From a virus: a stretch of DNA of 64,000 nt. The DNA lies in the IMG/VR virus record IMGVR_UViG_3300036820_000009, positions 29,726 to 93,725 of that record, one strand, 5' to 3'. The position numbers and the translations under genes were made by a program. Below are positions 19,437 through 48,023 of the stretch, piece by piece. Positions within the stretch are counted from its first letter, which is position 1. Each line of letters begins with the position of its first letter. The notes beneath the pieces are model-generated. The model was not told the DNA's origin. It worked only from the letters and a program-made list of their open reading frames with translations, and ran no database searches.

Positions 19437-20063
19437 TTAAGCATCGTCATAGGCGGGACTGACATCGAACCGTGCGGCATTCCGGTCTTTTGCCGACATG
19501 GTGAGGTTGGCACCATGTCCAATCGGCCAGCGGATGTCCAGCGTCGGATCATCCCACCGAATGGCGCGATCGTAGGCCGGATTGTGATAGCTGGTGGTCA
19601 TGTAGACCACGCTGGCGCCGAGCTCGAACGTCATGAATCCGTGTGCGAAGCCAGGCGGCACATAGAGGGCGCATGGCGTCATTTCGTCGAGAATCGCGGT
19701 ACAATGCTTGCCGAAGGTCGGCGAATGGCGACGCAGGTCGATCGCGACATCGAAAATTTTGCCCTGGATGATCTGCACCAGTTTGCCTTGCGGCCGGGGG
19801 TGCTGATAGTGCAAACCGCGCAGCACATAGGGCCGCGACCGTGAGAAGTTGCTTTGGACAAACCGGACCGGGTCCGCTGACGGGATGGCATCCATCAGCT
19901 CGGTCGCGCGAAAAAATTCGGTGAATACGCCGCGACTATCCCAGGTCACGCGGTTGGGGATGATCAAAAATACTTCCGGAATTTCGAGCGGCTTGATGCG
20001 AAATTTAGTCTCGACCGTGACCTGCGCGACAATCCCTTGTGTCGCGCCCGCGCTCTCTGTCAT
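19437..20063 (-). CDS. rmlC: dTDP-4-dehydrorhamnose 3,5-epimerase
   Basis: DSRGVFTE, VLRGLHYQ, QGKLV, DVAIDLR..SPTFG, PPGFAHGF, IRWDDP. Confidence 0.92.
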   Translation of the reverse strand: MTESAGATQGIVAQVTVETKFRIKPLEIPEVFLIIPNRVTWDSRGVFTEFFRATELMDAIPSADPVRFVQSNFSRSRPYVLRGLHYQHPRPQGKLVQIIQGKIFDVAIDLRRHSPTFGKHCTAILDEMTPCALYVPPGFAHGFMTFELGASVVYMTTSYHNPAYDRAIRWDDPTLDIRWPIGHGANLTMSAKDRNAARFDVSPAYDDA

Positions 20064-20092
20064 GATTCCCCTCCGGTGTGCAGGGGGAAAGC

Positions 20093-21166
20093 ATGACACT
20101 AGGAACTCCATCGGACAAGTCGGCCGGTATCGAGGGTGTCGCGCCCAAGAAAATTTTGTGCATCGGTGGTGGCGGCTATATCGGCAGCCGATTGGTGCCG
20201 ATCCTGCTGGCGGCCGGTCACCATGCCGAAGTGCTGGACACGTTTTGGTTCGGCGATCGCGGCGATGCGGCATGGAAAACAGCGGACGATGCGTGGAATC
20301 TCGATCTTAATACGCTGAGTGCGTTCGATTGCGTGATCTGGTTGGCCGGCATGTCCAATGATCCGATGGCCGATTTTTCGCCGGCGATGAACTTCATCGA
20401 GAATGCCGCGGCACCCTGCTACATCGCGCACCTGGCGAAGCGCGCCGGCGTGCGTCGGTTCATCAATGCGAGCTCGTGCTCGGTCTATGGCTTCGCGCCG
20501 GACCATCAAAGCATCGAGCGGTCGCAACCCCAAACCATGTTTCCCTACGGCATCGGCAAGCTGATGGCGGAACGCGGCTGCCATCAATTGGTCGACGAGA
20601 ATTTTTCGGTGATTTCGCTGCGCAAGGGCACGGTGTCGGGCTATAGCCCGCGCATGCGGTTCGATCTTATCGTCAACACCATGTTCCGCGATGCGGTGCG
20701 AGCGCATGCCATCCACGTCGCGCCGGGTGAAATCTGGCGGCCGATCGTCGCGATGACCGACGCGGTGCGCGCCTATCTGCTGGCGGTGGAAGTCGGCGCG
20801 GCGCTGAGCGGCGTGTTCAACATCGTGACCGAGAACGCGACCGTGTTCGATGTTGCACAGCGCGTGCAACAGCGTGTCAAGACGCAGCTTGGCATCAATG
20901 CGGTGCTGATCGAACGACCAGTGATCGAGAACAAGCGCAGCTATCGCGCATCCGGCCTGCGCGCGAAAGACGCGCTCGATTTCGTGCCAACCGGATCGGT
21001 CGAATCGATCGTCGACGAATTGTGCGCGCGGCTTGACGAATGGCCGGATTTCGCCGACCCGATGTATTACAACATCGAGATCTTCAAGGGATTGCGCCTG
21101 ACGCGCCAGTCATTTGGGGTGTCGCATATATCTGCGCCGAGAGAGCCAGCCACGACGCAAAATTAG
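20093..21166 (+). CDS. NAD-dependent NDP-sugar epimerase/dehydratase (extended SDR)
   Basis: GGGGYIG, ASSCSVYG, YGIGK (YxxxK), MRFDLIVN. Confidence 0.88.
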   Translation: MTLGTPSDKSAGIEGVAPKKILCIGGGGYIGSRLVPILLAAGHHAEVLDTFWFGDRGDAAWKTADDAWNLDLNTLSAFDCVIWLAGMSNDPMADFSPAMNFIENAAAPCYIAHLAKRAGVRRFINASSCSVYGFAPDHQSIERSQPQTMFPYGIGKLMAERGCHQLVDENFSVISLRKGTVSGYSPRMRFDLIVNTMFRDAVRAHAIHVAPGEIWRPIVAMTDAVRAYLLAVEVGAALSGVFNIVTENATVFDVAQRVQQRVKTQLGINAVLIERPVIENKRSYRASGLRAKDALDFVPTGSVESIVDELCARLDEWPDFADPMYYNIEIFKGLRLTRQSFGVSHISAPREPATTQN

Positions 21167-24994: not shown

Positions 24995-25000
24995 GGCGCA

Positions 25001-25363
25001 TCATCCTTTCGGCGTTCTAGCCTTGCGTTTGAGCTGGGCAAAATCCGTCTTCATCTGCGCCAATCGCGCGCGCGTCTTTTCGCTGATTTTGAATGGCGCC
25101 ATGAAATTCTCATGCGCTTTGCCGATCAGCCGATGTTCCAGCGCTGCCCGTTGTTCCATCGCGTTTTTTGGTTTATCGCCGCCGCGGGAGAAGGTGCCGC
25201 GCTTCGGATCGTCCTTCACCCACATCTCAAGAATGAAATCGAGATGCGTTTCGCTGAGATCGAGCAGCTCAGCCTTGAACGGGTTCCTGTGTCCCTGAAT
25301 CTCCGCTACCTGCCACAGCTTGATCAGTAGGCGGTTTTGGATAGGGAAACCGGTTCCTCCGAA
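25001..25363 (-). CDS. Tail assembly chaperone C-terminal extension (reached by +1 frameshift)
   Basis: Overlapping +1 frame (...LIKLWQVAE...LDFILEMW...) with no clear start of its own; ACC TTT CGG slip site at 25367-25359. Confidence 0.6.
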   Translation of the reverse strand, partial: FGGTGFPIQNRLLIKLWQVAEIQGHRNPFKAELLDLSETHLDFILEMWVKDDPKRGTFSRGGDKPKNAMEQRAALEHRLIGKAHENFMAPFKISEKTRARLAQMKTDFAQLKRKARTPKG

Positions 25364-25724: not shown

Positions 25725-25746
25725 GAACCATTCCCCCTACCAGGCG

Positions 25747-26283
25747 CTATAGCGACGCCGAAGCCGCGATATTGAGGCCGAGGCCGTTTCCGGCGACCGC
25801 CGTGGTCGACGGCAATTGGAAGGCGCCTGGGATATTCAAGAGGGAATTTCCGTCCTGGTCAAGCACGTCCATGGCCAAGAATGTCAGCGCATCCGACACC
25901 GGCTGGTTGGCGGGAATGTTTTCGTCGAAACTCGACGATACGCAGCCGATATAGGAAAATAAAACTTCCTGCGCCAATCCATCGATCACCGCGATATCGA
26001 ACGAATTGTTCGACAGCAATGCGGCGAGACTGGCGCCGCCGGTAATCAGGGCCTCGCCGGCCTGCGTTAGCGCGAATTCGTTGAGCGTGATGGTCGGACC
26101 GACGCGGAGCTGCTGGATTTCCTGCGGCTTCGCGGAACCGACGCCATAGATGCCCGTCGTGGTGTAGCCGAAGCTGTGATTGACGGTTTGCGCGAACGCG
26201 ACGGCAATATCGCCAATATACATCGCGACGGAATTCGCATTCCGCGCGTTGTATTGGAGTTGCTTGGCGTTGAAACCTGGCAT
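25747..26283 (-). CDS. Tail tube protein
   Basis: Directly after sheath; ANSV...FGYTTTGIYGVGSAKPQE resembles K/SPO1-type tube proteins. Confidence 0.8.
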   Translation of the reverse strand: MPGFNAKQLQYNARNANSVAMYIGDIAVAFAQTVNHSFGYTTTGIYGVGSAKPQEIQQLRVGPTITLNEFALTQAGEALITGGASLAALLSNNSFDIAVIDGLAQEVLFSYIGCVSSSFDENIPANQPVSDALTFLAMDVLDQDGNSLLNIPGAFQLPSTTAVAGNGLGLNIAASASL

Positions 26284-26298
26284 CGCTCAAAACTCCTG

Positions 26299-28134
26299 TT
26301 AGGCCGCGATCGCCGTGCCGGTATTGGTGAGCGTGGTCGTAAAATTGAGCGGCTGGATCGGCACGAAGATGGTGATGAAGCGGTTCTGACCGACCAGCGT
26401 GATATTGACCGATAGCGCCGCCGTCTGATTGATGCCGGTATAGACGATTTGCAGCGTGCTCGAATCCCAGGACGCCAGCACGCCGAGGCCGGTGCCGGTA
26501 TAGACCAGCGCATTGAGCGCTTTCTGCGCGGCGCGCAGGATGTTGACTTCGCCGTTCGGCGCCGCGATGCCGCCGGCGTAGGGCTGAATCGCATTGACCA
26601 GCGTATAGGCGGTGAAATCGCGGCACGCGATCTGCTGGTTGAACACGTTGGCCGGATTGGCGTCGTTCTGCCAGGTGGTGAAGTCCGATGCGATCGTCGG
26701 AATGCCGGGCGTGTTGCTCGGAATATAGATCGGCATCACGCCGGCTTGCTGAAGCTCGTTGATTTGGTCGACGCCAAGCGACAGCTCGACGCCGGTGCCG
26801 GTGACCTGCTTGTTGGTCAGCGGCATGTTCGCCGGATTGCCGGTGGCCATGCCGGCCGCCATCGCCGCGACATAGAGGCCTTCGAACAGCGTGTTGACGC
26901 CGGTGGTCGGATCGTTGGCATAGATGCCGGGATAGGCAAACGTGGTACGCGACGAGGCCTGTGCCTGCGCGGTGGTGACGGCGGTCGAAATCGAGGCGCC
27001 TTGGCTCGATCCGGTGAAGAACCGGCGCCATTTGGCATTGACGGTTTCGCTCGCGGTCAAGGCGTGCTGGGTGCCCAGCGCGATCACGCCCGAGCTGTTG
27101 CTGTCCGCGAACACCGACCAGGCCGGCAGCGTCAGCGCCAGATTGAATGCGTTGGCGTAATCGTCGAGTACCGGCGGCACGCTGACCGCGCCCGAAAACG
27201 AAGTGAACGGAATGACATTGGGCAGCAGCGCCGCGATCGGCACGACGCCGCTGGTGGCGGTGGCGATCGCCATCGGATTGCCGTTCTGGCCCAACGCGAA
27301 ATTGTTGATCCAGTAAACCGGATCGAGCATCGACGCGGTAACGTCGACATATTGCGGTTGGCCCATGACCGGCACGGGCAACGCGATGCCGCTGGTCACG
27401 TTGTCCAGCATCGCGGCCGGCAATTGGCCGTTGGTCGAACTGAGCGGAATCGCCGAATACAAACCGGTGCCGTTCAAATATTCGACGACGGCCTGCACGG
27501 TGCCGTACTCGGCCGAGCTGAGCGGAATGGTGACCGATTCGCCGGACGTCGAACTCGACACATTGAAGCTGGTGGCAACACCGCCCGAATAGGCGACGGT
27601 GTAAGCGACGGCACTTGCCGCACCGAGATACGCGAGCAGGAACGGCACGCCGAGATCGTCGCCCTGCTGCGCGATGTTGGAATAGGCATCGTACAGCGTG
27701 ATGAACACGCCGGCGGTCGAGCCCGCCTGCACCTGGATCTGAAGCAGGTTGGACGGCAATCCATAATCGGCCGAAATCAGGCTCGCGACGCCCGACGTGG
27801 CGCCGGTCGCGCCGGCGTAGAGCTCCAGCGCCGATTGCGTGTTCTCGCCGACATTGATGAACGTGATCTGCTGCGCGCCGTTGAGGTTCGGCGATGGATT
27901 GGTCAGGAACGGCACGAAGCCCGAACATGGGCCGCCGCGAATTGCCGCCAGCAAATCGTTCGGATCGATATAGGTGTTCGCGGTTTGCGGCTTGGTGCCA
28001 TAGCCATAACCGATGAAAATCAGCGGCGGACTGGTCGGCGGCTGCGCTTGCAGCACCGCGCTGACGTTGTCCGCGTAATAGGCGCCCGGAATGACAAGGG
28101 TCTGGCCCTCGAACTGGACGTTCATGTTGGGCAT
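26299..28134 (-). CDS. Contractile tail sheath protein
   Basis: FEGQTLVIPGAY N-terminus; MPLTNK, QINELQQAGV, DFTTW motifs. Confidence 0.88.
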   Translation of the reverse strand: MPNMNVQFEGQTLVIPGAYYADNVSAVLQAQPPTSPPLIFIGYGYGTKPQTANTYIDPNDLLAAIRGGPCSGFVPFLTNPSPNLNGAQQITFINVGENTQSALELYAGATGATSGVASLISADYGLPSNLLQIQVQAGSTAGVFITLYDAYSNIAQQGDDLGVPFLLAYLGAASAVAYTVAYSGGVATSFNVSSSTSGESVTIPLSSAEYGTVQAVVEYLNGTGLYSAIPLSSTNGQLPAAMLDNVTSGIALPVPVMGQPQYVDVTASMLDPVYWINNFALGQNGNPMAIATATSGVVPIAALLPNVIPFTSFSGAVSVPPVLDDYANAFNLALTLPAWSVFADSNSSGVIALGTQHALTASETVNAKWRRFFTGSSQGASISTAVTTAQAQASSRTTFAYPGIYANDPTTGVNTLFEGLYVAAMAAGMATGNPANMPLTNKQVTGTGVELSLGVDQINELQQAGVMPIYIPSNTPGIPTIASDFTTWQNDANPANVFNQQIACRDFTAYTLVNAIQPYAGGIAAPNGEVNILRAAQKALNALVYTGTGLGVLASWDSSTLQIVYTGINQTAALSVNITLVGQNRFITIFVPIQPLNFTTTLTNTGTAIAA

Positions 28135-28137
28135 GGA

Positions 28138-34394: not shown

Positions 34395-36173
34395 TCAGGA
34401 CGCGTTTGGATTCGGCTGCAACGGATTGAAGTCCGGATTGTCCGGGATGAAGTTGAGAATGGCGCCATGGAATTTCGGAATCTTGACGCGCACCGATCCG
34501 ATCATCGCGACCGCCCACGGCATGAAGAGGTTCTGCGCGAACAGGTCGATCTTGGTCAGCGGCAATAGATAGCGGAAATCGAGCGCCGCGTCATTCTCGT
34601 CGAGATCGAGCAGGAACAGCGTCTCGCCGCCCGGTTTCACCGTGTTGAGATCGGTGAAAGTGACGTTCGAGCCGGCATTCGCGGCCACGGTGCCGATGTA
34701 GCGGTACGATGCCGGGTTGGCCGCGCCGCTCGATGTCGGCACATAGCCGAGGCCCGACCGATAGATGCGGAACGAATTGTCGGTGGCTTCGGCGGGCTCG
34801 ACGGTGACGATATAGGCGCCGCCAACGGCCACGCCCGAAATCGACAGGCCGGTCATGTAGGTCAGGTACGATTCGTTCATCGACGCATCGCACGCGGCCG
34901 CGGCGTAGGAATAGATGCCGCTGCCGGCGGTATAGGTCGCATCCCATTCGCTGCCGGCGGCGACGCCGGTGGCCGCCACGGTCACGGCGGTCGGCCGCGT
35001 CGGGTTCGCGAGGAACGCCGCGTTGCTGCCATCCTCATAGATAATGGCCTGGGCGGGCTTCAGCCGCGCATCGATGTAGAGGTCGATCGGGAACTGGATC
35101 TCGCCGAACCGGGTGCGCATGCCCTGGAGATCGCCGTCGACGACAATGCCGGTCAGCCGCTCTTGGGACGGCGTGATGATGCTGACGATATTGTTCAGGA
35201 CGGTGGTGACCAGGCTTTGCAGCGAACCGGCGGTGATCGGCGACATGAACGCGTGCGTGATCCGGCCGAACTGGCGGTAGCTGGTGATCTGCGCGGCCGC
35301 CTCGTAGATCAGGTTGAAGAGCGTCTGCGACGCCGACCAGCCATGCGATGCCGTCGCCTGCTGGAATTCGTAAAAATCGAAGATATTGGCGGTCGGCAAT
35401 ACGCCGAGAATGCCTTGCGTCTGATTGGCGTACAGCGCCGGGTTGCCGTAATAGGTCGCCCAATTGACCGATTCGAGCACGGTCAGCGCGGCATTGATGT
35501 TTTCCTGCGCCGTGATGTCGACGAAGGAGTTTTGCGCCGCCAACGCGGTGGTGATCGCGCGGCCGTTCACCGCCAGCTTCAGCGTGATGTTGTACAGGCT
35601 GTACTTGCCCGCGCTGGTGTTGAGCTGGCCGGTCGACACGTTGCCGAACGCCTGGAACGCCGTGCCGGGCAGTCCGCCGCCGGTATCCCACGCATACGGC
35701 CAATAATCGACCACCTGGAACGCGCCGCTTTTCGGCAAGCACTGATAGAGCGTGAACGAATTCGGCCGCACGGTGCCGCGCGCCATCTGCGTGTCGAGCG
35801 ACACGTAGCCGAGCGATTGGCCGCCGGTGATCTGCGCGAAGTTGGTCAGCGTGCCGACGTCGAGCACCGCTTTCGAGATCTCGCCGGCCTTGGCGAGTTC
35901 CTGAAGCGACTTGAATTGCCGGGCGCGCACATTGGCGCGGAACGCGCGCGACACCGCGTTGAGCGGCTTGACGATGTCGTCGAGCCGCTTCAGGACGTTC
36001 TGGATGTCCGCCTTGCGCATCTCCGGCGGCTGGCACATGCCGAGAAAGAGATCGCGGAACCCGGTCGGCAAATCCTGCGGAATCGCGCTCAGGATCCCCG
36101 TCATTGCCTTCTGAAGGGCAAAGTCTTGCTCGTTCCGGGATCCACCGCTGAGCATGTAGGCGCCGCCGTCCAT
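34395..36173 (-). CDS. Major capsid protein
   Basis: After protease/scaffold and before a strong terminator; GGQSLGYVSLD...FTLYQCLPK and PLTKIDL resemble K/SPO1-type MCP. Confidence 0.8.
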   Translation of the reverse strand: MDGGAYMLSGGSRNEQDFALQKAMTGILSAIPQDLPTGFRDLFLGMCQPPEMRKADIQNVLKRLDDIVKPLNAVSRAFRANVRARQFKSLQELAKAGEISKAVLDVGTLTNFAQITGGQSLGYVSLDTQMARGTVRPNSFTLYQCLPKSGAFQVVDYWPYAWDTGGGLPGTAFQAFGNVSTGQLNTSAGKYSLYNITLKLAVNGRAITTALAAQNSFVDITAQENINAALTVLESVNWATYYGNPALYANQTQGILGVLPTANIFDFYEFQQATASHGWSASQTLFNLIYEAAAQITSYRQFGRITHAFMSPITAGSLQSLVTTVLNNIVSIITPSQERLTGIVVDGDLQGMRTRFGEIQFPIDLYIDARLKPAQAIIYEDGSNAAFLANPTRPTAVTVAATGVAAGSEWDATYTAGSGIYSYAAAACDASMNESYLTYMTGLSISGVAVGGAYIVTVEPAEATDNSFRIYRSGLGYVPTSSGAANPASYRYIGTVAANAGSNVTFTDLNTVKPGGETLFLLDLDENDAALDFRYLLPLTKIDLFAQNLFMPWAVAMIGSVRVKIPKFHGAILNFIPDNPDFNPLQPNPNAS

Positions 36174-37825: not shown

Positions 37826-38716
37826 TCACGCCTCCATTGCGCGCTTTTTTTCGAGCAGCAGGTGATACATCAGCGCATGCGCGAACAACGCGGCCTGATC
37901 CGCCGGCGCGCCACAGCACAGCGAAAAATGATCGTGGAATCCCTTGACCGAATTGACGCCCTTGGTGAATGGGCAATCGCCCTTCATGTGCCGGTGATAT
38001 TGGCCGACCGCGCCATCGAGGTTGAACGGCATGGCCAGCGACATCGCCGGCGCCATGCCCGCCATTCCTTCGTTGAGACCGAGTGTTCCGGGCATTAGCG
38101 GCGATGCTCCCTTCAAGAATTCGATAAAGGCTTTCGCGGTGACGATTTTGGCATAGCCCTTGAGATCGGTGTTCACGGGGTTGCGCGTGAAGGCCAGGCT
38201 GCGCCAATCGATGCCCTTGACCAGGTAGCGCGTCGCGCCGCCGCCGCAGCTTTCCTGCGAGCAGTCGACCGTCATGCCCGCCTTGGGAAACCCATAGATC
38301 GATGCGCGCCATTTCACCGGCGGCTCGCTTTGCATCGATTGCCAGAATTCATCGTATTTGTATCGATCGGGACTGAAGGATCCGTCCTGCGATCGCATGA
38401 TTTCGCCGGTAACGCCGGTGCGGCCGTTGCCAAGATCCACCACTTCGGTCGGCCGGCCGACGATATAGGAGCTCGGATTCACGATGCCGATGCGCGCGCC
38501 GATTTCGGAAAAATGCTCCAGGTCGAGATGCCCGTTCTTGATGAAGTCGGGCGCCGAATCCATCAGTGCCTTTTGCAGGATGACATCGCCTTCGGCGTCC
38601 ACCGCCTCGCTCGACGCTTCCACCTTGACCAGCCGGCGCTCGCCTTCCGTGCTGGCCTTGATCAGCGCCGGAAACTGGATGATCACCGGGTTCTTCGTGA
38701 TGTCCGAGCTATACAT
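37826..38716 (-). CDS. Prohead protease
   Basis: EASSEAVDAEGDVI, GHLDLEH, ASIYG, LAFTRNPVN. Confidence 0.8.
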   Translation of the reverse strand: MYSSDITKNPVIIQFPALIKASTEGERRLVKVEASSEAVDAEGDVILQKALMDSAPDFIKNGHLDLEHFSEIGARIGIVNPSSYIVGRPTEVVDLGNGRTGVTGEIMRSQDGSFSPDRYKYDEFWQSMQSEPPVKWRASIYGFPKAGMTVDCSQESCGGGATRYLVKGIDWRSLAFTRNPVNTDLKGYAKIVTAKAFIEFLKGASPLMPGTLGLNEGMAGMAPAMSLAMPFNLDGAVGQYHRHMKGDCPFTKGVNSVKGFHDHFSLCCGAPADQAALFAHALMYHLLLEKKRAMEA

Positions 38717-39410
38717 GATAGGGCCCGATCGCAAAAAAGCCTTTGCCGTCGACGCCTTGCTCGACGACGCCGGCCGTCCAATCCTCTTCGATTTCGGCGA
38801 ACCGCTCCGGTCCGAAAACGATGTCGCCGCGGTAGGGTTCGACCTTGGCCAGGTCGACCGATCCCTGGTCATAGGTGATCGTCACGTGCGGCTTATAATC
38901 CGGCCAGGATGAGGTTGCGCCCTTGTCCAGGATTTCCTGTTGGCGCCGGCTGAGATCGTCGCACCGGAACCGCAGCACGATCGCGCCTTCCGGCCCGAGC
39001 TGCTGGACTTTGCGCGCCTTGGGTAGGCCGCTGGCGCGCACTTCGTCGAACGAATCGCCGAGGCCATCCCAATCCACGGCGGTTTTGCTATACACGATCG
39101 TCACGTGCATGTCGGCCGGCGGCAGGGTTTTCTCGAAGCCCTGCCGCTTGGCCCAGCCGATCAATTTATCGGCATTGGCCACCGGCCGCGACAGATAGAG
39201 ATTCCGTTTTGCCGCCTTGGCCAGCAAATGCACGTCGACCGATGTCGGCCGCGGCATGGCCAGCCGCTCGACCGACATGCCTTTGCTCAAATCGACGATA
39301 CGATAGGCGATACGGCGATCTGGCATGGTCGCTTTCACCGCGGCGAACGCCGGCGCGTCGAGCACCGCGATGATGGTAAGTCGTCCCTTTGCCCACGATG
39401 TTCGGATCAC
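38709..39410 (-). CDS. 2H phosphoesterase, Acb1/T4 gp57B-like (anti-CBASS candidate)
   Basis: Two HxT motifs (MHVTIVYS, PHVTITY), YRGDIVFGPE. Confidence 0.78.
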   Translation of the reverse strand: MIRTSWAKGRLTIIAVLDAPAFAAVKATMPDRRIAYRIVDLSKGMSVERLAMPRPTSVDVHLLAKAAKRNLYLSRPVANADKLIGWAKRQGFEKTLPPADMHVTIVYSKTAVDWDGLGDSFDEVRASGLPKARKVQQLGPEGAIVLRFRCDDLSRRQQEILDKGATSSWPDYKPHVTITYDQGSVDLAKVEPYRGDIVFGPERFAEIEEDWTAGVVEQGVDGKGFFAIGPYHV

Positions 39411-39462
39411 AGCCGCTCCCCTGCGCGGCAAGCATACCGCCAAACGGCGGCAACCCCCTATA

Positions 39463-40158
39463 TCACGCGGTCGCGAATCCGCTTACGGCAAGTGTTGCGG
39501 TTTGCCGCGACTTGGAAAACCAGCTTCCGACTGTATTGAAATGACACCCAAAATAATCGGCGATCTGTTTTTGCGTCCAGTGTTGATTGTTATACAGATC
39601 CAGTGCCTCTTTTTTCTCTTCGCTGGAATAGATGATCGGGTGTTCTTTTTTCTTCCGGCCCAGCATGAGATCGCCAAGTTTCCGGGATCCTTGAAGCTCG
39701 GCGCCTTTCGCGAAAATTTCCTCGTAGAGATTGATCCAGTGGTCGACGCTGATTTGCGGCGAAATCGAATTCCACCAATTGTCGCTATAGTCTTGCGACA
39801 GGATCACGCGGTCCAGTAGCCATGCCATGCGCTGAATCCCATCATGGCATTCCGCGGCATGGAATGAAAATTCGCAATAGAGTTCGCGCTTACTGTCGGC
39901 CGCGCGATATTTTCCCTGCGCGATGCGCATCGTCTTGCAGTCGGCGCAATAACAATTGCGCGCATGCCCGGAAACGCGTCGCTTCGCCTGCTTGATTACT
40001 TCGAACTTGGCGCGCCAATCGACGCACACCAGGCATGAGCAATCCGGATCGACAGCCGAATAGTCGCTGTGCGCCAGGGCGCTACGCTGTACCACTTGGT
40101 TCCGATCTCCCCACCGGCAGCGCGATGCCATTGCCGCGATATACCGCATCGATGGCAT
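39463..40158 (-). CDS. Cys-rich protein with C-terminal HTH (start uncertain)
   Basis: CSCLVC, CYCADC; WTQKQIADYFGCHFNTVGSW. Confidence 0.55.
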   Translation of the reverse strand: MPSMRYIAAMASRCRWGDRNQVVQRSALAHSDYSAVDPDCSCLVCVDWRAKFEVIKQAKRRVSGHARNCYCADCKTMRIAQGKYRAADSKRELYCEFSFHAAECHDGIQRMAWLLDRVILSQDYSDNWWNSISPQISVDHWINLYEEIFAKGAELQGSRKLGDLMLGRKKKEHPIIYSSEEKKEALDLYNNQHWTQKQIADYFGCHFNTVGSWFSKSRQTATLAVSGFATA

Positions 40159-43100
40159 CGATATAATCCGAACTTTCGATTCCGTTCAAGTCAACCGAGA
40201 CAATGTCTTCGTTGAAGAAGCGCATCCATTCCGCGAGCCAGCTCATGACCGCGATATGGCCATGGCTGCTGCCGAACGTGTCGAGACACATCTGGCAGGC
40301 GCCCTTGCGATAGCCCTGATCGCAGGATCGGCCGTTTTGCATGAGGTCGCGGCGCGCGCATACCGATTCGGCATTGATCGGCCGGTATTCCACCGGCACG
40401 CCGAGCCGCACCAGGAACCCGAGCATCGCCGGCGGCGCTTCGCCGAGCTCGGTCACGACGATCTTATCGATGCCCATCAGCGCGATCGACGGCACCGCCG
40501 CTTTCGGATTGCGGATATCGAACGGCAGCGTGTTTTCGAGCGGCGGCTTGGCGAACCGCGCCTTGAATCCGGTGACCTCCAACTCATAGATCGCGTCGCC
40601 ATCGCGCCATTCGTCGAACATGGAGCGGTCCGGTCCGAGCATCAGAATCCGCTGGAACGGCCAATCCTGGTCGCGCCAGGGCCAAGGCAACGGCGGCCAG
40701 ACAAAATGATCCATGTTGAGGCCCGCCACCACCATGCCGCCCTGAAGCAGGTAGATCACCAGGTTCGAATTCCAGTAGCGATCGATATCGGGATAGCGTT
40801 CGCCGATGATGGTGCCTTCGTCGCGCAAGAGCCGCATGCCCTCTTCGCTGTTGGACTTGGTACGCGTCACGCCTTCGAAGTGCTGAAGCTGCGCGCGACA
40901 GGCGACGATATTGAAATAGTTTCGCCGGCGCAGTTCGAGGCAGAACGCGACGTCGTTGTAATTGTGTGACAGATATTCCGGGAATCCGCCGACTTCATCG
41001 AAAAGCTGCCGCCGCACCACCATGCAGGCGCCGGTGACGCACGAATTTTCGTGCGACAGCATCGCCAGCCCGTGATAGCCCGGCAAATGCGCCGGCAGGC
41101 CTTTGTGCAGGTGGCCATTGTTGCCGCGGTGCGAAATCACGCCGATGTGCTGGATGGCGCCATGCGGATAGAGCAGTTTGGCGCCAATCGCGCCGGCGCC
41201 TGGCGCGTAGGTTGCCGCCACCATCTCGCTGAGCCAGATCGGCGCCAGGATCCGCGTGTCGTCATTGAGGAAACACAGAATTTCGCTGTCGGTCTGGCTC
41301 ACCGCGAAATTGTTGAGTTTCGACCAATTATAGGGCTCGGCCCATACCAGGATCTCGATCCGCTTGTCGGTCAACGAATCCAGGTAGCTGAGCATTTCCG
41401 GATTGTCGCTGCCGTTGTCGACGATCAGCACGTCGAAATTCTTGTATGTCGTCATGCTCAGCAGCGTGTTGAGGCACGGCATCAGCATTTCGACGCGATT
41501 CTTGGTCGGAATGATAATCGTGACTTTCGGCTCTTCGCGATAGCCACCGACATATTGGACTTCGTGGCAGTCGTGAATCACCGGATGCTGGCAGACATTG
41601 ACCGGCATGCCATATCGCTTGGCATGCGCATCGGCGAGCGCGGCTTTCTTAGGCGCGTTCGCGCGCAACACGGCGGGATCGACCGGCGCCAGATGCGCGC
41701 AAATCCGCTGCACGTGACCGATACTGTCGCGGCCACAGGTTTCGATCGTGCGCAGCGCCAATTCGTAAAACAGCACATCGCTGTCGGTATCGGCGGCGCA
41801 CGCCGGCAGCAACCGCGATGCCAGCAGGCCTTCGATCGCCATCAGCGGCGTCACGTAATCCAGGCCGAGGAAATAATGGTGATCGAAGTCGGGCTTGAAA
41901 TGATGATCGCCACGCAGGCCCTTTTCGTTGAGGATATCGTGATCGCTATAGATCAGCTTGACGGCGAGATTCTTTTCCAGCTCCGTGACATAGATGCTGA
42001 AGAAGTCGTCGATTTCGGTGGTGGCGGCCGCGCACACGATCCAATCGATATTGGCATCGATCGCGGCCTGGAGCTCGGCGCGATCGTGCGCGATCGTCAT
42101 GGTCGGCATGCCGGCCAGCGCTTTCCATTTTTCGATGGCCGCGAGATCGCGCGGGCCCGGCGTATCGAAGATCGCGGCCCATAGCGGATATTCGGTCCGA
42201 TGCCGCTGTTCCGGCAATCCGCGGTACCGCAATCGGTGAAACGCGAGTTCGAGTTCCTGGCGCGCCTGCGTAATGGCGGGCTGATCGGCCTTGCCCGGTG
42301 GCCACCGCAAGCCCATGCGCAGCGCGATTTCATTGGCCAGCGTCGCCGGCGTGCCGCGCGGTTCCTTCGAATAGAGATAGAAATCGAACCGAATCACATT
42401 TTCGAATCCGCGCGCCGCCGCCATGCCGCTCCATTCGATGATCGCCATTTCCGTGTTGCCGATGCGGAAATCGGGAAATCCGATCGTTTCCAGCGCGGCG
42501 CGCCGGATCAGCATGCAGGGTCCGGTCGCGATGCCGGTGCTGGCAACCTGATCCTCGAAAATATCCTTGGCGGTTTCGTGGATGCCGTCAGCGGTGGCCG
42601 CATCGATCGCGGTAAACGAATTCATCTTGGGAAACCCGGTATAGGCGCCATCGTTCGAGAAGAACGAAATTGTTGCCAGTTTCGGATTTCCGGTGCGCCG
42701 CAACCGCTCGATCATGTCGGGCGGCAGCACGATCGAATCGCGGACGTAGAGAATATCGGCCGTGGTGTCTTCGCAGATCGATTGCAGATCGGACACCGTC
42801 GTCGTGATGCCATTGACCGTGGCTTGCTTGCCGACGACGACAATGACGCCGTTCTTGCCGCCGGCGCGCGCCGCGGCGCTATCGAGCGCGGGCTCGAAGG
42901 CGCGGATTCCCTTGGGCAACCAGCCTTCCATGCGCTCGGCCGCCTTGGTGTCGAGACAATAATGGCGCTTGGCCCAGGTATGAAGCCGCTGCGCATGATC
43001 GCCACGCTGCGAATCGGACAGCGTCATGAACATGGCGATGGCGGCGATCCATTCGTCGGCGGTGGCGCAATGCGCATAAACCGGCGGCGCGTTCTCGACA

Positions 43101-43954
43101 TAGGGCGCGACCCGCGACGCGATCACCGGATAGACGCAGGCGCCGGCTTCGATCAATCGCAGGTTCGATTTGCAGCGATTGAAATGATTGTCGTCGAGCG
43201 GCGCGATCATCAAATCGACATCGAGATTCGCCAGCGCCACCAGATATTGGTTCGGCGGTACCGCGCCGGCGAAAAACTTCGATACGCCCAGCGGCGTGTC
43301 CGGATCCATGCCGAGAAAGCACCAATCCACCGTGTCGCCGAAATGTTCGAAGACGGGCTTCATCATGCCGAAATCGGCGGTGTGCCCGATGCCGCCGCCC
43401 CAGCCGATGCGAAACTTATTGTGCTTTTTCGGCGGCCGTTGGCGCGGGTTCCGCGCGGCGAACCGCGCCTGATGCGCATTCTCGAAATCGTCGATGCCGA
43501 GCATGTTGGGAATGACGCGGACATCGATATCGCCACAGATATCGCGCATATGGGTCGCGAGATTGCGCGTGGTGACCGATACCGCATCGCACAGCGCGAC
43601 GCTATTCTTGATGCCGCGATTGATGTTGGGCGGCAGGAACGGTTTGTGCCAGCTCGTATCCGGCACGTCGGCGATCGCGTCGTCGATCTCGTAAACGAAA
43701 AACGCATCGGGCAGCGCGGTCCGATAGCGCTGCATCATTTCGAGCTGGCCATCGCCCTGCCGCTGCCATACCACGACGTCCGGTGCCAGCACCTTGAGAT
43801 ACTGCTCGGGCATGAAATTGAATTCGGCGCGGCCGGTGGCGACGCCGGCGCGCATCATGATTTCGAGCGGCCGCAGAATGCGATGATAGCCACAGCCCTG
43901 ATTGTCGCCGGGATGGGCCAGGATATAGGGCGGACGATTCAATCTGCTGGACAC
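40082..43954 (-). CDS. Multidomain glycosyltransferase (~1290 aa; N-terminal GT4-like, C-terminal GT2 domains)
   Basis: YEIDD, RIGWGGGIGH, APLDDNHFNRCKSNLRLIE; IIIPTKN, FLNDDT, VTGACM, NDVAFCL; GTG start after GGAG. Confidence 0.88.
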   Translation of the reverse strand: MSSRLNRPPYILAHPGDNQGCGYHRILRPLEIMMRAGVATGRAEFNFMPEQYLKVLAPDVVVWQRQGDGQLEMMQRYRTALPDAFFVYEIDDAIADVPDTSWHKPFLPPNINRGIKNSVALCDAVSVTTRNLATHMRDICGDIDVRVIPNMLGIDDFENAHQARFAARNPRQRPPKKHNKFRIGWGGGIGHTADFGMMKPVFEHFGDTVDWCFLGMDPDTPLGVSKFFAGAVPPNQYLVALANLDVDLMIAPLDDNHFNRCKSNLRLIEAGACVYPVIASRVAPYVENAPPVYAHCATADEWIAAIAMFMTLSDSQRGDHAQRLHTWAKRHYCLDTKAAERMEGWLPKGIRAFEPALDSAAARAGGKNGVIVVVGKQATVNGITTTVSDLQSICEDTTADILYVRDSIVLPPDMIERLRRTGNPKLATISFFSNDGAYTGFPKMNSFTAIDAATADGIHETAKDIFEDQVASTGIATGPCMLIRRAALETIGFPDFRIGNTEMAIIEWSGMAAARGFENVIRFDFYLYSKEPRGTPATLANEIALRMGLRWPPGKADQPAITQARQELELAFHRLRYRGLPEQRHRTEYPLWAAIFDTPGPRDLAAIEKWKALAGMPTMTIAHDRAELQAAIDANIDWIVCAAATTEIDDFFSIYVTELEKNLAVKLIYSDHDILNEKGLRGDHHFKPDFDHHYFLGLDYVTPLMAIEGLLASRLLPACAADTDSDVLFYELALRTIETCGRDSIGHVQRICAHLAPVDPAVLRANAPKKAALADAHAKRYGMPVNVCQHPVIHDCHEVQYVGGYREEPKVTIIIPTKNRVEMLMPCLNTLLSMTTYKNFDVLIVDNGSDNPEMLSYLDSLTDKRIEILVWAEPYNWSKLNNFAVSQTDSEILCFLNDDTRILAPIWLSEMVAATYAPGAGAIGAKLLYPHGAIQHIGVISHRGNNGHLHKGLPAHLPGYHGLAMLSHENSCVTGACMVVRRQLFDEVGGFPEYLSHNYNDVAFCLELRRRNYFNIVACRAQLQHFEGVTRTKSNSEEGMRLLRDEGTIIGERYPDIDRYWNSNLVIYLLQGGMVVAGLNMDHFVWPPLPWPWRDQDWPFQRILMLGPDRSMFDEWRDGDAIYELEVTGFKARFAKPPLENTLPFDIRNPKAAVPSIALMGIDKIVVTELGEAPPAMLGFLVRLGVPVEYRPINAESVCARRDLMQNGRSCDQGYRKGACQMCLDTFGSSHGHIAVMSWLAEWMRFFNEDIVSVDLNGIESSDYIDAIDAVYRGNGIALPVGRSEPSGTA

Positions 43955-44352
43955 GTGAGCTCCGTTTTTGGATCGGAAAGAAAGGAATGGCTGAGGTTGC
44001 GGGTGAAATAATTGGTGCTGACGGGATCGTCCGACGCGCCTTCGGCGCCGCCGTAATGGACGCATAGATCGTCGGTCCCGGCTTCGTAGGTCCGGCAGGC
44101 GTGTGGCCGATTGGCGTAATCGCCGCAGCGACCGTTCGGCAACAGATTAAAGCACCACCAGACCCAATTGCCGTCACGGCGCCGATAGAGCGGCATGAAC
44201 GATAAAGGATGTTCCTCGAATCCGCTTTGCGCCGCCATCTGCACGATCGCTTCGAGTGCGGTCTCGACCGTGGCGACCCGCGGATCACCCGATAGGATTA
44301 CCGCGCGACAGCAATTGCCCGGCACGAAACACGAATCGCAAACCGACATCAA
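43939..44352 (-). CDS. YkgJ-like zinc/iron-chelating cysteine-cluster protein
   Basis: CDSC...CC, C..L...GRCGDYANRPHACRTY. Confidence 0.7.
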   Translation of the reverse strand: MMSVCDSCFVPGNCCRAVILSGDPRVATVETALEAIVQMAAQSGFEEHPLSFMPLYRRRDGNWVWWCFNLLPNGRCGDYANRPHACRTYEAGTDDLCVHYGGAEGASDDPVSTNYFTRNLSHSFLSDPKTELTCPAD

Positions 44353-46058
44353 GCCGCCCGTTTTGTTTCGGTCGCACTATTCCGTCTGACGCCGCTGATC
44401 TTGCCGTGCGCCTCGGACCGCGCCGGATCCTTCGATGGCTTGAACGGCGCACCCGCGGACTCGCCATCCTTGCCATCGGTATCGAGGCCCAACATGGCTT
44501 CGAGCATGGTGGCGGCCATGGTCTGGAACGCATTGGTTTTGCCCGGATCCGCGGGGCAGAGCCCGAGAATGATCGCCAGCGGTTCCAGTTCCTTGTGATC
44601 CTTCACCATTTCGACCAGCTTCGGCCTGCCCGCCATGACGCGCTGTTCGTCGAAGGTGCAGGCATTCATTTTCGCTTCGTATTGCCGCGCATCCTCTTTT
44701 GGATTTTTGCCGGTAAACACAAACTGCAAATGCGGCCAGCGCGACCACAGCAGATATTCGTTGATGAAGGCTTCGATGTGCCCGAGCAGCGGCGCCAGGC
44801 CGGGATCGTCTTCATCGACCGCGTTGCCCGATGAATCCGGCAACGGTTCGGTATCGCGGCCCTTGCCGCTGATCCGATAGCCGAGCCGGCGCGCCGGGAA
44901 TCGATAGATGCAGCAGAACAGGCCGGCCAGCATGTTCATCCATTCCTCGTAATATCCCTCCATCCCTTTGACCGATGAGAGATCGACGAGTTCGAATTTC
45001 GCTTCGCCCGACAGGCCGACCACCGGCATCGCCCATGCCTTGGTGATACCGCGCTTCATGTTGGTCCACAGCCGATTGAAAATGTCGAGCTGGCGCTGCG
45101 TGACCGAGCCGCCGGTGATGGTCAGGATCGCGTTCGGAATGCCATTGCGATTGAACACGTCGACATTGAGATCGATCGCGTTCTGGAACCCTTGAATCAG
45201 CCGGATCGCGATTTCGATTTCGCTATAGCCGTAGCCCGACGCAAAGAGATCGCCGGATACCGCGACGTCCGTCCGCGTGTTGCGGACATAGAAAGTGAGC
45301 TGTTCGCGCGTAAATTCCTGGACAACCTTGCCGCCCTGGTCGACGCCGACCGCGAAGATCTTCGGATCGCCTTTGTAGCCGCGCTTCGCGGTCAGCCGGA
45401 TATTGCCGGCGGGCAGCAGCGAATAGCCCTTGACCTTGTCGTCGCCGGTCATGTCGGTCCACAGCGCCAGCCCGTCATAGGTCAGCATGTCGCGCACCGC
45501 GGCCGCCAGGAAATTCTTGAACCCAAGACACCGCGCTTCGTCGCGCTTGCGGGCTTGCGCATATGTCGTTTCGGCATTGGAATTGAGAATGAAGCGCTGC
45601 GCTTCCAGGATTTCCTTCGCCAGCGTATCGGACTGCTCTTCCTTTTTCTCGCGCGCCTCGATGCGCCAGCCCGGTTTCCAGATCTCCGTCGACAGATCCG
45701 AATAACGCTGCACGTCATCGCAGCGCATGCCGATCACGACTTGCGGCGCCACGTTCTCGCGCGCGATTTTTTGCAGCGCTTCCGGCGCGATGCCGGGCCA
45801 TGGCAGTACGCCGGTCGCATTGGGATCCGGCATGTATTCGATGCGGCCATAGGCGAAATCGCCCGGCGGCAGATTGAGCGATTTCAGCGCGGCGGGAAGC
45901 CCGCTCCCGCCCATGTCCTTGAACAGGCCCTCGAAAAAGCTGACATAGCCTTCGTGATCGAGCGCGGTAACATTGCCGATCGATCCGGCACTCGGCAGCC
46001 TAACCGCCGAGTCCCCCTGATTCGCGTCAAATGGTTCGCGTGTCGGACCTTCTGACAT
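44349..46058 (-). CDS. Portal protein
   Basis: Follows terL; VRDMLTYD, GYGYSEIE, NGIPNAIL, PGLAPLLGHIEAFIN. Confidence 0.82.
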   Translation of the reverse strand: MSEGPTREPFDANQGDSAVRLPSAGSIGNVTALDHEGYVSFFEGLFKDMGGSGLPAALKSLNLPPGDFAYGRIEYMPDPNATGVLPWPGIAPEALQKIARENVAPQVVIGMRCDDVQRYSDLSTEIWKPGWRIEAREKKEEQSDTLAKEILEAQRFILNSNAETTYAQARKRDEARCLGFKNFLAAAVRDMLTYDGLALWTDMTGDDKVKGYSLLPAGNIRLTAKRGYKGDPKIFAVGVDQGGKVVQEFTREQLTFYVRNTRTDVAVSGDLFASGYGYSEIEIAIRLIQGFQNAIDLNVDVFNRNGIPNAILTITGGSVTQRQLDIFNRLWTNMKRGITKAWAMPVVGLSGEAKFELVDLSSVKGMEGYYEEWMNMLAGLFCCIYRFPARRLGYRISGKGRDTEPLPDSSGNAVDEDDPGLAPLLGHIEAFINEYLLWSRWPHLQFVFTGKNPKEDARQYEAKMNACTFDEQRVMAGRPKLVEMVKDHKELEPLAIILGLCPADPGKTNAFQTMAATMLEAMLGLDTDGKDGESAGAPFKPSKDPARSEAHGKISGVRRNSATETKRAA

Positions 46059-47163
46059 AGCCCCCGCCATCCGAAACTGGCCGGTCCACCAGCTCGACAT
46101 GTTCGCAACAATCCATCGGAATCATAGGACGGCGCCAGAGTCCGCACCAGCCTTTTTCATAATGCGTACAGTTCGAACAGCTCGTCGCGTAGGGATCGAC
46201 CACCATCGACGGCAGCTCGTCGATGAACATGAGGGCTTCGAGCCGCGGATCGGCGATGCCGTGATTGACCGCCTTGCTCGCCTCGATCAGGTCCGGCGGC
46301 GCGGTGTCGGGCGACCAATCGCTGGGCAGCAGCATGGTCTTGGCGCCCAACTGGATCGCATAGGTGACGAGATGCACGAACGCGTCGACCTGATCGCTGA
46401 CCGCGTCATCGATGCCCGAGAAATCCTTGAGCTCGGTTTCGAACGTCTTGAGCCAGCGCGCGGTTTGCGGGAATAGCACCCGATGCTGCCGGCACCAGCC
46501 CTGAACCGAGCCGGCTTCGGTGCCGCTGATCGCGCGCGCGCGCTTGCCTTCCTTGGCTTCGACGCCCTGGATGTTGATGTTGGCGCCGGGCATCGATTGC
46601 AGAATCGAGATACCGGATGCGCGGTTCTCGACCAGCACCAGCTCCGGCCGCCACTTCATGTGCTGTTGCCGCACCGCGAGCGGCAGGCTGCCCCAATCCA
46701 TCTTCTTGCGGAACACGTCAAGAATCAGCACGTCGAAATGGGCATCGCATGGCCCATTGATCTTCTCGTCTTCGCCGCAGTGATACTTGCTGCACGGTAG
46801 CAGCAATCCGGTCACGCAGACCGACCAGGCCGAGCCCGCGGTTTCGGAAAACGCCGTATCCCATGCCTGGAAAATGCCGTGCCCATGTTCGCAGAATTTA
46901 GCGACCGATGGCGCATTGATGCCGTACCACAGCGCTTCCGGCGGCACGTAATAGAGAAAATCCTTTTTGAGGAAGATCGAGCCTTCGCGCGCGCCCGGCC
47001 GCTGCTGATAGATGGCTTCGAAATCGGCGGGACTGTTGCGGCGAACCGCGGTGACTTCGCGTCGTTTCTGATCGGAGGTCGGCCAAAAAAACGCTTCGTT
47101 CCGATCCGCCCACGCTTCATCATAGCCGTAGGTGACTTTGAGTTTGATCAGGCCGTCGCTCAT
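46027..47163 (-). CDS. terL: Terminase large subunit, C-terminal part (lid remainder plus nuclease)
   Basis: FEAIYQQRP, WDTAF, LVENRASGISILQ, DQVDAF. Confidence 0.85.
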   Translation of the reverse strand: MSDGLIKLKVTYGYDEAWADRNEAFFWPTSDQKRREVTAVRRNSPADFEAIYQQRPGAREGSIFLKKDFLYYVPPEALWYGINAPSVAKFCEHGHGIFQAWDTAFSETAGSAWSVCVTGLLLPCSKYHCGEDEKINGPCDAHFDVLILDVFRKKMDWGSLPLAVRQQHMKWRPELVLVENRASGISILQSMPGANINIQGVEAKEGKRARAISGTEAGSVQGWCRQHRVLFPQTARWLKTFETELKDFSGIDDAVSDQVDAFVHLVTYAIQLGAKTMLLPSDWSPDTAPPDLIEASKAVNHGIADPRLEALMFIDELPSMVVDPYATSCSNCTHYEKGWCGLWRRPMIPMDCCEHVELVDRPVSDGGGYVRRSDTRTI

Positions 47164-47177
47164 TGTTGGGGCATACC

Positions 47178-48023
47178 ATGCGACAGAAAATTATTCTACG
47201 GCGGGCTGGCGCGCTCGGCGACGTGCTGTGCGCCACGCCGATCGCGCGGCGCCTGCGGCAGCTCAACCCCGCTGCCGAAATCGTCGGCCAGACCAATGTG
47301 CCGGAAGCGCTCGCGGAAAATATCTGGATTGACCGCGTCATCCCGATGAATCAGCGGGAACCGGATGCCGAGCTGATCGATCTCGATCTCGCCTATGAGC
47401 GGCGCCCCACCATGCATATCGTCGATGCCTACATGGAAGCCGCCGGCATCGACGGCGATAAGACGCCCTGCTTCGGCCGGTTCCATCCAACAGGCACAAC
47501 CCACAAGATCGAGTTCATCGCCATCCATGCCGCGCGCGCGTGGCCGAGCCGGACATTCAGCCCGGCGTTTTGGGATACGGTGATCACCGTGCTGCTCCAC
47601 AAATTTTCCTATCCGATTGTCTTGGTCGGCCACGGCGGCGATTATCGTGTCGCGCATGACCGGGTGATCAATATGGTGGGCCGGCTGACGCTGGCCGAAA
47701 CCCGGCTCATGATCGAAACAGCCGGCCTGCTCGTGTGCAACGATTCGGGCATGCTGCACCTGGCCGGCACCACGCGCGCCGCCATTGTCGGCTTGTTCAC
47801 GTCGGTCAAGGCGGCCTATCGATTGCCGTATCGCGATGGCGTGCTCGGCTGGAATTGCGCGGCGATCGAGGCACCGATCGGCTGCTACGGGTGTCTCGCC
47901 GAGGCGCCGGTGCCGAGCACCAATCTGGTTTGCCGCCGCGGCGACAATGCCTGCGTGACATCGATCGAGCCGGCGGCGGTGGTGGATCAGGTCGCAACTT
48001 TCGTCGCCGGCAACGCAATGTGA
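47178..48023 (+). CDS. Glycosyltransferase family 9 (heptosyltransferase-like)
   Basis: RAGALGDVLCATP, VCNDSGMLHLAG, VGLF, CYGC motifs. Confidence 0.88.
   Translation: MRQKIILRRAGALGDVLCATPIARRLRQLNPAAEIVGQTNVPEALAENIWIDRVIPMNQREPDAELIDLDLAYERRPTMHIVDAYMEAAGIDGDKTPCFGRFHPTGTTHKIEFIAIHAARAWPSRTFSPAFWDTVITVLLHKFSYPIVLVGHGGDYRVAHDRVINMVGRLTLAETRLMIETAGLLVCNDSGMLHLAGTTRAAIVGLFTSVKAAYRLPYRDGVLGWNCAAIEAPIGCYGCLAEAPVPSTNLVCRRGDNACVTSIEPAAVVDQVATFVAGNAM

Follow-up and report, generated by a model that had tools for sequence, protein, structure and literature searches.

To our knowledge, glycosylation of virions by phage-encoded enzymes is known experimentally in only a few actinobacteriophages. In mycobacteriophages the subunits of capsid and tail tube reportedly bear glycans at their C-termini, and the glycans of actinobacteriophages are reported to shield the particle (PMC12619734). 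In Pseudomonas, the genes fgt1 and fgt2 are found upstream of fliC; Fgt1 places rhamnose on serines of flagellin, and deletion of fgt1 results in unglycosylated flagellin (PMC3927599, PMC12915359). In TibC, an autotransporter heptosyltransferase (BAHT), a cysteine-finger motif has been implicated in dimerization and in recognition of the protein substrate (PMC4358343). Here we describe a set of glycan-related genes in the genome of an uncultured soil phage, IMG/VR record IMGVR_UViG_3300036820_000009. The stretch analysed, hereafter the window, is 64,000 nucleotides long and corresponds to bases 29726-93725 of this complete 93,725-bp record, which has direct terminal repeats. A preliminary description had placed four carbohydrate enzymes at three sites among the morphogenesis genes of the window: a GT9 glycosyltransferase inside the large terminase gene (terL), a giant transferase between portal and prohead protease, and RmlC together with a nucleoside diphosphate (NDP)-sugar epimerase in the tail region. 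Profile matches confirm all four at these sites (TIGR01221, PF01370, PF00535/phrog_7162 and PF01075).

We put at about an even chance the reading that the products of these genes O-glycosylate proteins in the cytoplasm, most likely those of the virion, and that the glycan contains rhamnose. In the mechanism that we propose, the giant enzyme, which is of the Fgt type, would start and extend a short O-linked, deoxyhexose-containing glycan on Ser/Thr residues of proteins that fold in the cytoplasm. The GT9-like enzyme and a methyltransferase would decorate this glycan, possibly methylating it, while RmlC and RmlD would top up deoxythymidine diphosphate (dTDP)-L-rhamnose from the dTDP-4-keto-6-deoxyglucose of the host. 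Exchangeable sugar-supply genes, here RmlC, RmlD and a short-chain dehydrogenase/reductase (SDR) of unassigned specificity, would thereby feed the core enzymes. The targets would most likely be capsid and tail proteins of the phage itself while these assemble, and the finished glycan would coat the virion surface. Virion proteins are the most likely acceptors because the giant enzyme is a core gene of the head module, no export route is encoded, the phage looks lytic and the accessory sugar genes vary between close relatives. The identities of the genes, their homologies and conservation, the solubility of the enzymes and the lack of export partners are observations, whereas the protein nature of the acceptor and the identity of the acceptor proteins are inferred, as are the sugar donor of the giant enzyme and the timing of expression.

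The giant glycosyltransferase of the head module

The giant transferase, P0001, is a soluble protein of 1286 amino acids (Table 1); its open reading frame (ORF) remains open over 40082-44065 on the minus strand (1327 aa), and the database version starts at 43942. It comprises a GT-B module (aa ~1-370), a GT-A-like remnant (~371-600), an 'ADHD...FKPxFD' module joined to a GT2 module (~631-1065) and a C-terminal alpha/beta domain (~1066-1286). Within the GT-B module aa 54-374 match phrog_7162, the only family match found for this part, as no Pfam GT1/GT4 model recognises it; within the GT2 module aa 849-1025 match PF00535. Of the GT4+GT2 architecture initially assigned to the enzyme, the GT2 part is therefore upheld and the GT4 part is not. 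Comparison with hhalign (probability 90%) identified aa 468-550 as the remnant of a further GT-A module, related to the GT2 module. A search of PDB sequences with the P0001 profile returned generic GT2 matches only, and a model of the C-terminal domain (predicted local distance difference test, pLDDT, 70) was most similar to the N-terminal halves of GT-B enzymes, at noise level (best Z score 7.5). A hydropathy scan found no transmembrane (TM) segment in the enzyme.

The flgL-fliC interval of P. amygdali contains two large ORFs of 1191 and 1001 aa, both of which show homology to the giant enzyme. We term these island ORFs, either of which may be fgt1, Fgt1/Fgt2-type. Residues 5-307 of P0001 align with aa 865-1154 of the 1191-aa ORF (34% identity over 307 aa, E 2e-48), residues 631-1085 align with aa 405-859 of the same ORF (23% identity over 466 aa, E 1e-29), and residues 682-1021 align with the 1001-aa ORF (25% identity, E 5e-28). 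A P0070-type Pseudomonas homolog, which joins a methyltransferase to a GT2 domain, was ruled out as an island counterpart because it does not lie in the flagellar island.

About 40 full-length homologs of the giant enzyme were recovered (28-55% identity, 1216-1319 aa), all of them metagenomic and many on contigs of 55-100 kb, and motifs in each module are invariant across these 40 proteins. No full-length homolog was found in any cultured phage. In about 15 IMG/VR loci the gene always directly follows the portal gene and precedes the same Cys/HTH (helix-turn-helix), protease, scaffold and capsid genes, and yet the portal proteins of these loci are only 41-51% identical. Such fixed synteny between portal and protease in divergent relatives identifies the giant enzyme as a core head-module gene of the clade and not a moron.

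The same enzyme could also act on a lipid-linked chain. Its residues 648-1062 are ~30-36% identical to bacterial proteins annotated as 'O-antigen biosynthesis protein' or 'rhamnan synthesis F family', and multi-module soluble transferases are typical of ABC-transporter-dependent O-antigen pathways. The giant enzyme might therefore polymerise a rhamnan- or O-antigen-like chain on the undecaprenyl-linked primer of the host, with export by host transporters and the methyltransferase as a possible chain-terminating cap; the resulting change in lipopolysaccharide (LPS) or capsule would block superinfection, or re-adsorption of progeny to debris. We regard such envelope remodelling as unlikely. An initiating transferase, flippase, ABC transporter, ligase or Gtr-type membrane protein is not present in the genome, and all of the encoded glycan enzymes are soluble. 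Indeed, a hydropathy scan of the whole 93.7-kb genome revealed no multi-pass membrane ORF (at least 4 TM segments with coding-like composition) except a holin-like one, which extends to the full genome the earlier remark that no flippase or GtrA/B-type partner is visible in the window. Similarly, a PF00589 search found no integrase in the genome, and this, together with the direct terminal repeats, makes the phage look lytic. Among the homologs of the GT-B module, the best characterised is an enzyme that glycosylates a protein, and a head module in which the gene is fixed in all relatives would be an odd place for an exclusion function.

A protein acceptor could also lie outside the virion. 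The enzyme might modify flagellin, pilin or a translation or defence factor, or might itself travel in the capsid and be injected, as an effector of host take-over or counter-defence. With the Fgt-type homology, flagellin itself could be the target. In this phage an anti-CBASS (cyclic-oligonucleotide-based antiphage signalling system) gene, Acb1, shares the portal-to-protease slot; in the cultured phages PHB04 (L002) and Mecenats66 (L003) the slot holds giant DarB-like methyltransferase/helicase proteins and a Ulx-like anti-restriction gene. This company fits counter-defence or cargo, and large accessory or capsid-cargo genes may be accommodated there more generally. We nevertheless consider a target other than the virion quite unlikely. 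The giant enzyme has no N-terminal extension usable as a capsid-targeting propeptide, since the alignment begins at the GT-B fold, and modification of flagellin late in a lytic cycle would be without obvious benefit. Acb1 is not syntenic in the relatives, whereas the giant enzyme is; in relative L012, for example, an Acb1 homolog lies upstream of terL. Virion proteomics of cultured relatives was not found in the literature, and the Mecenats66 paper contains none.

The GT9-like gene and the split terminase gene

The second transferase matches PF01075 with 37.3 bits (gathering cut-off 22) and contains GALGD and NDSGxxH motifs. The G+C content at third codon positions (GC3) is 0.78 for this gene as compared to 0.60 for the ORF shadowing it on the opposite strand, and the coding strand is therefore the plus strand. 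Its AlphaFold2 (AF2) model (pLDDT 95.9) gave Z scores of 23.8 to 3tov, 22.4 to WaaF, 22.3 to TibC and 21.6 to WaaC, with the next unrelated folds at 11 or below. TibC shared the most aligned residues (265 of 281); the alignment covers TibC residues 95-392 only. C236, C239 and C252 are invariant in the GT9-like family and C259 is nearly so. In a profile alignment the CxGC...C motif formed by the first three of these cysteines aligns with Cys339/342/358 of the TibC iron finger; alignments of the family to LPS heptosyltransferases end before this motif. The family consists of 69 short proteins (260-300 aa) from metagenomic contigs only, and six contig sizes recur in the match lists of both this family and that of the giant enzyme.

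The gene does lie inside terL, as first described. The terminase gene is split exactly at the junction of its ATPase and nuclease halves, and the GT9-like gene fills the gap. Its ATG and that of the nuclease half are arranged head-to-head, 14 nt apart, and the nuclease half lacks an obvious Shine-Dalgarno sequence. Distant relatives have one contiguous terL ORF of 822-1039 aa, which indicates that the split is derived. Among the relatives compared (L004, L010, L012, L014, L006 and L013), separate ATPase and nuclease ORFs occur only in the closest subclade, with gaps of 0.8-5.8 kb. The cargo of the gap varies and includes the GT9-like gene, a methyltransferase, GT34-like, DUF4214, GP88-like and CxxCxxCC proteins, or Mom, the last taking the place of the GT9-like gene in L012. 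No intron or other RNA family from Rfam was found in the terL gap, and no convincing flanking repeats were found around either of the two plus-strand genes (GT9-like and SDR).

Outside of the closest subclade the surroundings of the gene differ. In G003-G005 (L092, L093 and L094) it directly follows a ThyX-like gene and DNA polymerase A, and FkbM-type and type-11 methyltransferases are encoded nearby. Likewise, the closest cultured homolog of the GT-B module of the giant enzyme belongs to a four-transferase block adjoining replication genes in phapecoctaviruses. These neighbourhoods might suggest that the transferases glycosylate modified DNA bases to evade restriction, an explanation that we find highly improbable. 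The complete genome has no detectable ThyA (PF00303), ThyX (PF02511) or DNA polymerase A, yet both transferases are kept, and we know of no DNA glycosyltransferase with such a multi-module architecture. The earlier observation that the window lacks a DNA base-hydroxymethylase thus holds for the genome as a whole.

Sugar supply, distribution among relatives and candidate acceptors

RmlC scores 182.7 bits against TIGR01221 (equivalog cut-off 155.75; profile positions 2-172 of 176) and 181.8 bits against PF00908, with the domain at aa 93-269. Its true start is probably Met71, at 20063, and the first 70 codons of the ORF look non-coding. What looks like an internal TGA in the RmlC of relative G001 is the normal stop codon of that gene. 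RmlD is encoded outside of the window. Both RmlC and RmlD exceed their NCBIfam equivalog cut-offs, in agreement with an enzyme of the rhamnosyltransferase type. No RmlA was found (no PF00483 match in the whole genome) and no RmlB-type dehydratase was recognised, the only other SDR in the genome being GalE-like. This SDR is far below every NCBIfam equivalog cut-off, RmlB-type included, and an Atlas look-up placed it in generic SDR clusters only. The complete RmlA-RmlB-RmlC-RmlD pathway is therefore reduced here to RmlC and RmlD, and the phage must draw on dTDP-4-keto-6-deoxyglucose from its host. It had been proposed that the phage makes its own NDP-deoxysugar, which is correct for the last two steps towards dTDP-L-rhamnose and not for the first two.

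RmlD, a methyltransferase dependent on S-adenosylmethionine (SAM) and an HNH endonuclease form a small early-region island (genome positions 13990-16582) just upstream of a tRNA array and ~13-16 kb before the start of the window. The methyltransferase is 45-55% identical to those found beside the GT9-like gene in three relatives, and a SAM-dependent methyltransferase accompanies the GT9-like gene in the majority of the relatives that have it. Homologs of RmlD are at most 47% identical and taxonomically mixed, and thus give no clue to the host. The low-GC ORF adjoining RmlC may be a homing endonuclease that mobilises the RmlC island. The ORFs that flank RmlC and the SDR, of 563 and 280 aa, match no family; the two enzymes are where they had been reported to be, and the names baseplate hub and spike for their neighbours are not borne out. 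Similarly, all four enzymes had been assigned to the virion operon, which is accurate for their location, although the SDR and the GT9-like gene are antisense to it.

The distribution of these genes among relatives is uneven. While the giant enzyme is universal, the GT9-like gene occurs in about half of the related records searched (6 of 14, including three of the four that are at least 90% complete), at differing loci; in the closest subclade it occupies the terL gap in either orientation. RmlC, RmlD and the SDR are confined to one subclade, where they sit at an insertion hot spot of the tail module. Co-occurrence in relatives, suggested earlier as a check on the system, has accordingly turned out to be partly patchy. 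In the closest subclade RmlC is always located between homologs of the 563-aa and 280-aa ORFs, with varying company: the SDR and the HNH-like ORF here, none in G001, and an SDR with an RmlD-like gene in G002 and G007, where the SDRs are orthologs at the same site. G007 has a second sugar island (L096:11562-16219), flanked by the presumed tube gene and the tail-module ORF next to it, which encodes an SDR dehydratase, a split transketolase dependent on thiamine pyrophosphate (TPP), a nucleotidyltransferase and another SDR; this content suggests that the product is a branched NDP-sugar or another unusual one. The same hot spots of the tail module are thus filled with different sugar islands in close relatives, and variability of this kind, by analogy, is that seen for exposed glycans. 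In fact, these genes are a conserved core (the giant enzyme, in most cases accompanied by the GT9-like gene and the methyltransferase) plus accessories exchanged at a few hot spots, and not one co-inherited block. Two sites, the split terL and one junction in the tail module, serve as landing pads where glycan genes insert.

With such a distribution the four genes might form no single system at all, and instead be independent morons with unrelated or redundant roles, only the giant enzyme having a conserved function. RmlC and the SDR are restricted to one subclade, each relative has its own island content, and RmlC is flanked by an HNH-like ORF, the methyltransferase by a genuine HNH gene. Moreover, Mom replaces the GT9-like gene in one terL gap, and G002 has rhamnose genes with no GT9-like gene. 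Set against this, several contigs with a member of the GT9-like family also carry the giant enzyme, the GT9-like gene is kept in three different genomic contexts, all cargo types except Mom are glycan-related, and RmlC and RmlD fit a core of the rhamnosyltransferase type. We therefore judge a mere collection of morons to be improbable.

Candidate acceptors can be named for the preferred reading, glycosylation of virion proteins. The fibre proteins had been called very rich in Ser and Thr; tail and fibre proteins are indeed enriched, but only mildly (17-22% Ser+Thr as compared to a module mean of 15%). The sheath and the presumed tube have C-terminal tails rich in Ser/Thr/Ala/Gly, and there are weak hints that such C-terminal tails are the acceptor sites. 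At the capsid C-terminus (34395-34420; L004-L016 compared), ends in Ala-Ser/Thr (NAS, SAT, LAT and NAT) were seen only in the subclade with rhamnose genes; capsid proteins of the distant subclade end two to four residues earlier (ANN, ANA, ANS and PNQ). A separate observation concerns a 615-aa Thr/Gly/Asn-rich protein with 22% Ser+Thr, low GC3, a signal-peptide-like N-terminus ending in AKA and no family match, whose gene has been inserted upstream of the sheath gene, where it separates two conserved ORFs. As a conserved acceptor it was rejected, being absent from all eight relatives searched.

Several findings weigh against glycosylation of virion proteins. The Ser/Thr-containing C-terminal tails are short and could be coincidental. 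The modules stand in a different order from those of the Fgt1-type ORF, with only 23-34% identity, so that donor and acceptor could differ, and the GT2 module is equally similar to bacterial O-antigen/rhamnan-type enzymes that act on lipid-linked acceptors. For the GT9-like protein the Z scores to TibC, WaaF and WaaC are tied, and the N-terminal beta-barrel of TibC is absent. Its gene neighbours ThyX-like and DNA polymerase A genes in G003-G005 and no virion gene, and G002 lacks both it and the methyltransferase. Distant relatives keep the giant enzyme with neither RmlC nor RmlD, and rhamnose is therefore not obligatory. Finally, as the same slot accommodates Acb1 in this phage and giant DarB-like proteins in PHB04 and Mecenats66, the position of the giant enzyme may mark a cargo or counter-defence slot and not a link to capsid assembly. 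Virion glycosylation, as originally proposed, is still the best reading, backed by the Fgt-type homology, the putative TibC-type finger, the solubility of the enzymes and the lack of both export partners and an integrase, with capsid and tail subunits as the presumed acceptors.

The surrounding module is that of a myovirus of ~60% G+C, running from ~49 kb to ~7.8 kb of the window with nearly all genes on the minus strand, in the order terL, portal, giant transferase, Cys/HTH protein, Acb1, prohead protease, scaffold-like, major capsid, sheath, SLT-domain tail protein and baseplate proteins. The Cys-rich/HTH protein directly follows the giant transferase in every relative, at 26-35% identity. 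The closest cultured phages are very distant (portal and capsid ~25-29% identical) and include Bordetella PHB04, Morganella Mecenats66, Yersinia fHe-Yen8-01 and some Thermus phages; a megablast comparison of the region with cultured phages gave no match, nor did an IMG/VR scan with the portal protein alone. The G+C content and the homologs hint at proteobacterial hosts for the clade. Scans for promoters and terminators yielded counts not above shuffled expectation.

Table 1. Features of the morphogenesis module and of the associated early-region island; positions refer to the window unless marked as genome positions.
Feature	Position	Strand	Basis
Low-GC (0.50) 114-aa ORF adjoining RmlC, HNH-like Cys/His pattern	18977..19321	-	by eye; no Pfam match
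RmlC, dTDP-4-dehydrorhamnose 3,5-epimerase	19437..20063	-	TIGR01221 + PF00908; ORF open to 20273
Extended-SDR NDP-sugar epimerase/reductase or dehydratase	20078..21166	+	PF01370, 90 bits; GalE-like SSCSVYG + YGIGK motifs
178-aa ORF, presumed tail tube, candidate acceptor	25747-26283	-	position adjoining sheath only
Tail sheath, candidate acceptor	26299-28134	-	phrog_279
615-aa Thr/Gly/Asn-rich protein	30021-31868	-	
Major capsid protein, candidate acceptor	34395..36173	-	phrog_752; C-terminus ...NPNAS
Prohead protease	37826..38872	-	phrog_1028 (weak) + conserved synteny
Acb1 anti-CBASS 2H-phosphoesterase, between giant transferase and prohead protease	38709-39443	-	PF23474, 129 bits
Cys-rich protein with C-terminal HTH	39463-40158	-	Terminase_5 / HTH_23-like
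Giant soluble glycosyltransferase P0001, 1286 aa	40082..43942	-	PF00535 + phrog_7162
Portal protein	44349..46100	-	phrog_15361 + phrog_12; tblastn matches to PHB04 and Mecenats66 portals
Large terminase, C-terminal (nuclease) half, own ATG	46027..47163	-	phrog_38 positions 489-714
GT9-like GT-B glycosyltransferase, 281 aa, putative C-terminal Cys4 finger, antisense to terL	47178..48023	+	PF01075
Large terminase, N-terminal (ATPase) half	47987..49072	-	phrog_38 positions 251-490
RmlD, outside window	genome positions 13990-14868		TIGR01214, 273.9 bits (cut-off 224)
SAM methyltransferase, beside RmlD	genome positions 15561-16136		

Significance and comparison with known systems

To the preliminary description the present analysis adds the end of the rhamnose pathway including RmlD, the putative TibC-type finger, the orthologous methyltransferase, the division into core and accessory genes and the insertion hot spots. 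In its most specific form, to which we assign somewhat less than an even chance, our proposal is that uncultured myoviruses of ~80-105 kb have, as a whole clade, domesticated a flagellin O-rhamnosyltransferase with shuffled domains and turned it into a core head gene; together with a minimal TibC-like enzyme it would attach to capsid and tail subunits a methylated deoxyhexose glycan that varies between lineages. If true, virion glycosylation would extend well beyond the actinobacteriophages, and sugar-supply islands would diversify the phage coat much as O-antigen loci do. Phage sugar coats would then be more widespread and more evolvable than thought, with consequences for phage-host recognition, for adhesion and environmental stability, and for the clearance of therapeutic phages by the immune system. 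Testable candidates are at hand in the 1286-aa enzyme, the 281-aa TibC-like enzyme, which would be the smallest relative of the autotransporter heptosyltransferases, and the defined candidate acceptor tails.

Of the known systems, the flagellin glycosyltransferases Fgt1/Fgt2 of P. syringae/amygdali share homologous GT-B and 'ADHD...FKPxFD' plus GT2 modules with the phage enzyme, and all are large, soluble, multi-module proteins. The GT-B module is last in the bacterial ORF and first in the phage enzyme, which adds a GT-A-like remnant and a different C-terminal domain. The bacterial genes are located in a flagellar island next to fliC, whereas the phage gene is located in the head module between portal and protease. 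Fgt1 links rhamnose to Ser of a self-assembling polymer protein (PMC3927599, PMC12915359), while for the phage enzyme such an activity is predicted. Glycans of some pathovars contain a methylated deoxyhexose, and the phage has a methyltransferase. The TibC/BAHT enzymes, which act on cytoplasmic proteins, share with the second phage transferase the GT9-type GT-B fold (Z 22, 260-265 residues aligned) and, at the same place in the C-lobe, what would be a Cys finger, three of its cysteines aligning with those of TibC. In contrast, the N-terminal beta-barrel that is needed for TibC activity is missing from the phage protein, which starts at the first Rossmann strand (281 as compared to 406 aa), and no autotransporter substrate is encoded near its gene.

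Seroconverting phages also encode glycan-altering enzymes (GtrA/GtrB/Gtr-type proteins and O-acetylases); theirs are membrane proteins of temperate phages that act on O-antigen in the periplasm, whereas this phage has neither membrane partners nor an integrase. In the chlorovirus PBCV-1, the A064R protein has rhamnosyltransferase and methyltransferase activities, and capsid-protein glycans are built independently of the host secretory machinery. By their description, A064R and A111/114R resemble the giant phage enzyme as virus-encoded, soluble, multi-domain transferases for capsid glycans, but their glycans are N-linked and the virus encoding them is a giant virus of eukaryotes (PMC9614988, PMC7826918). 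In mycobacteriophages (Che8, Corndog and others), phage-encoded transferases are reportedly associated with structural genes, as is the case here; their cassettes are small sets of single-domain enzymes in siphoviruses of actinobacteria, whereas the present system combines a giant fused enzyme with a GT9-like one in an uncultured myovirus clade of ~60% GC, where virion glycosylation is a prediction. Virion glycosylation as such would therefore be a known kind of system, and what appears to differ here is the enzymes, their architecture and the phage lineage that carries them.

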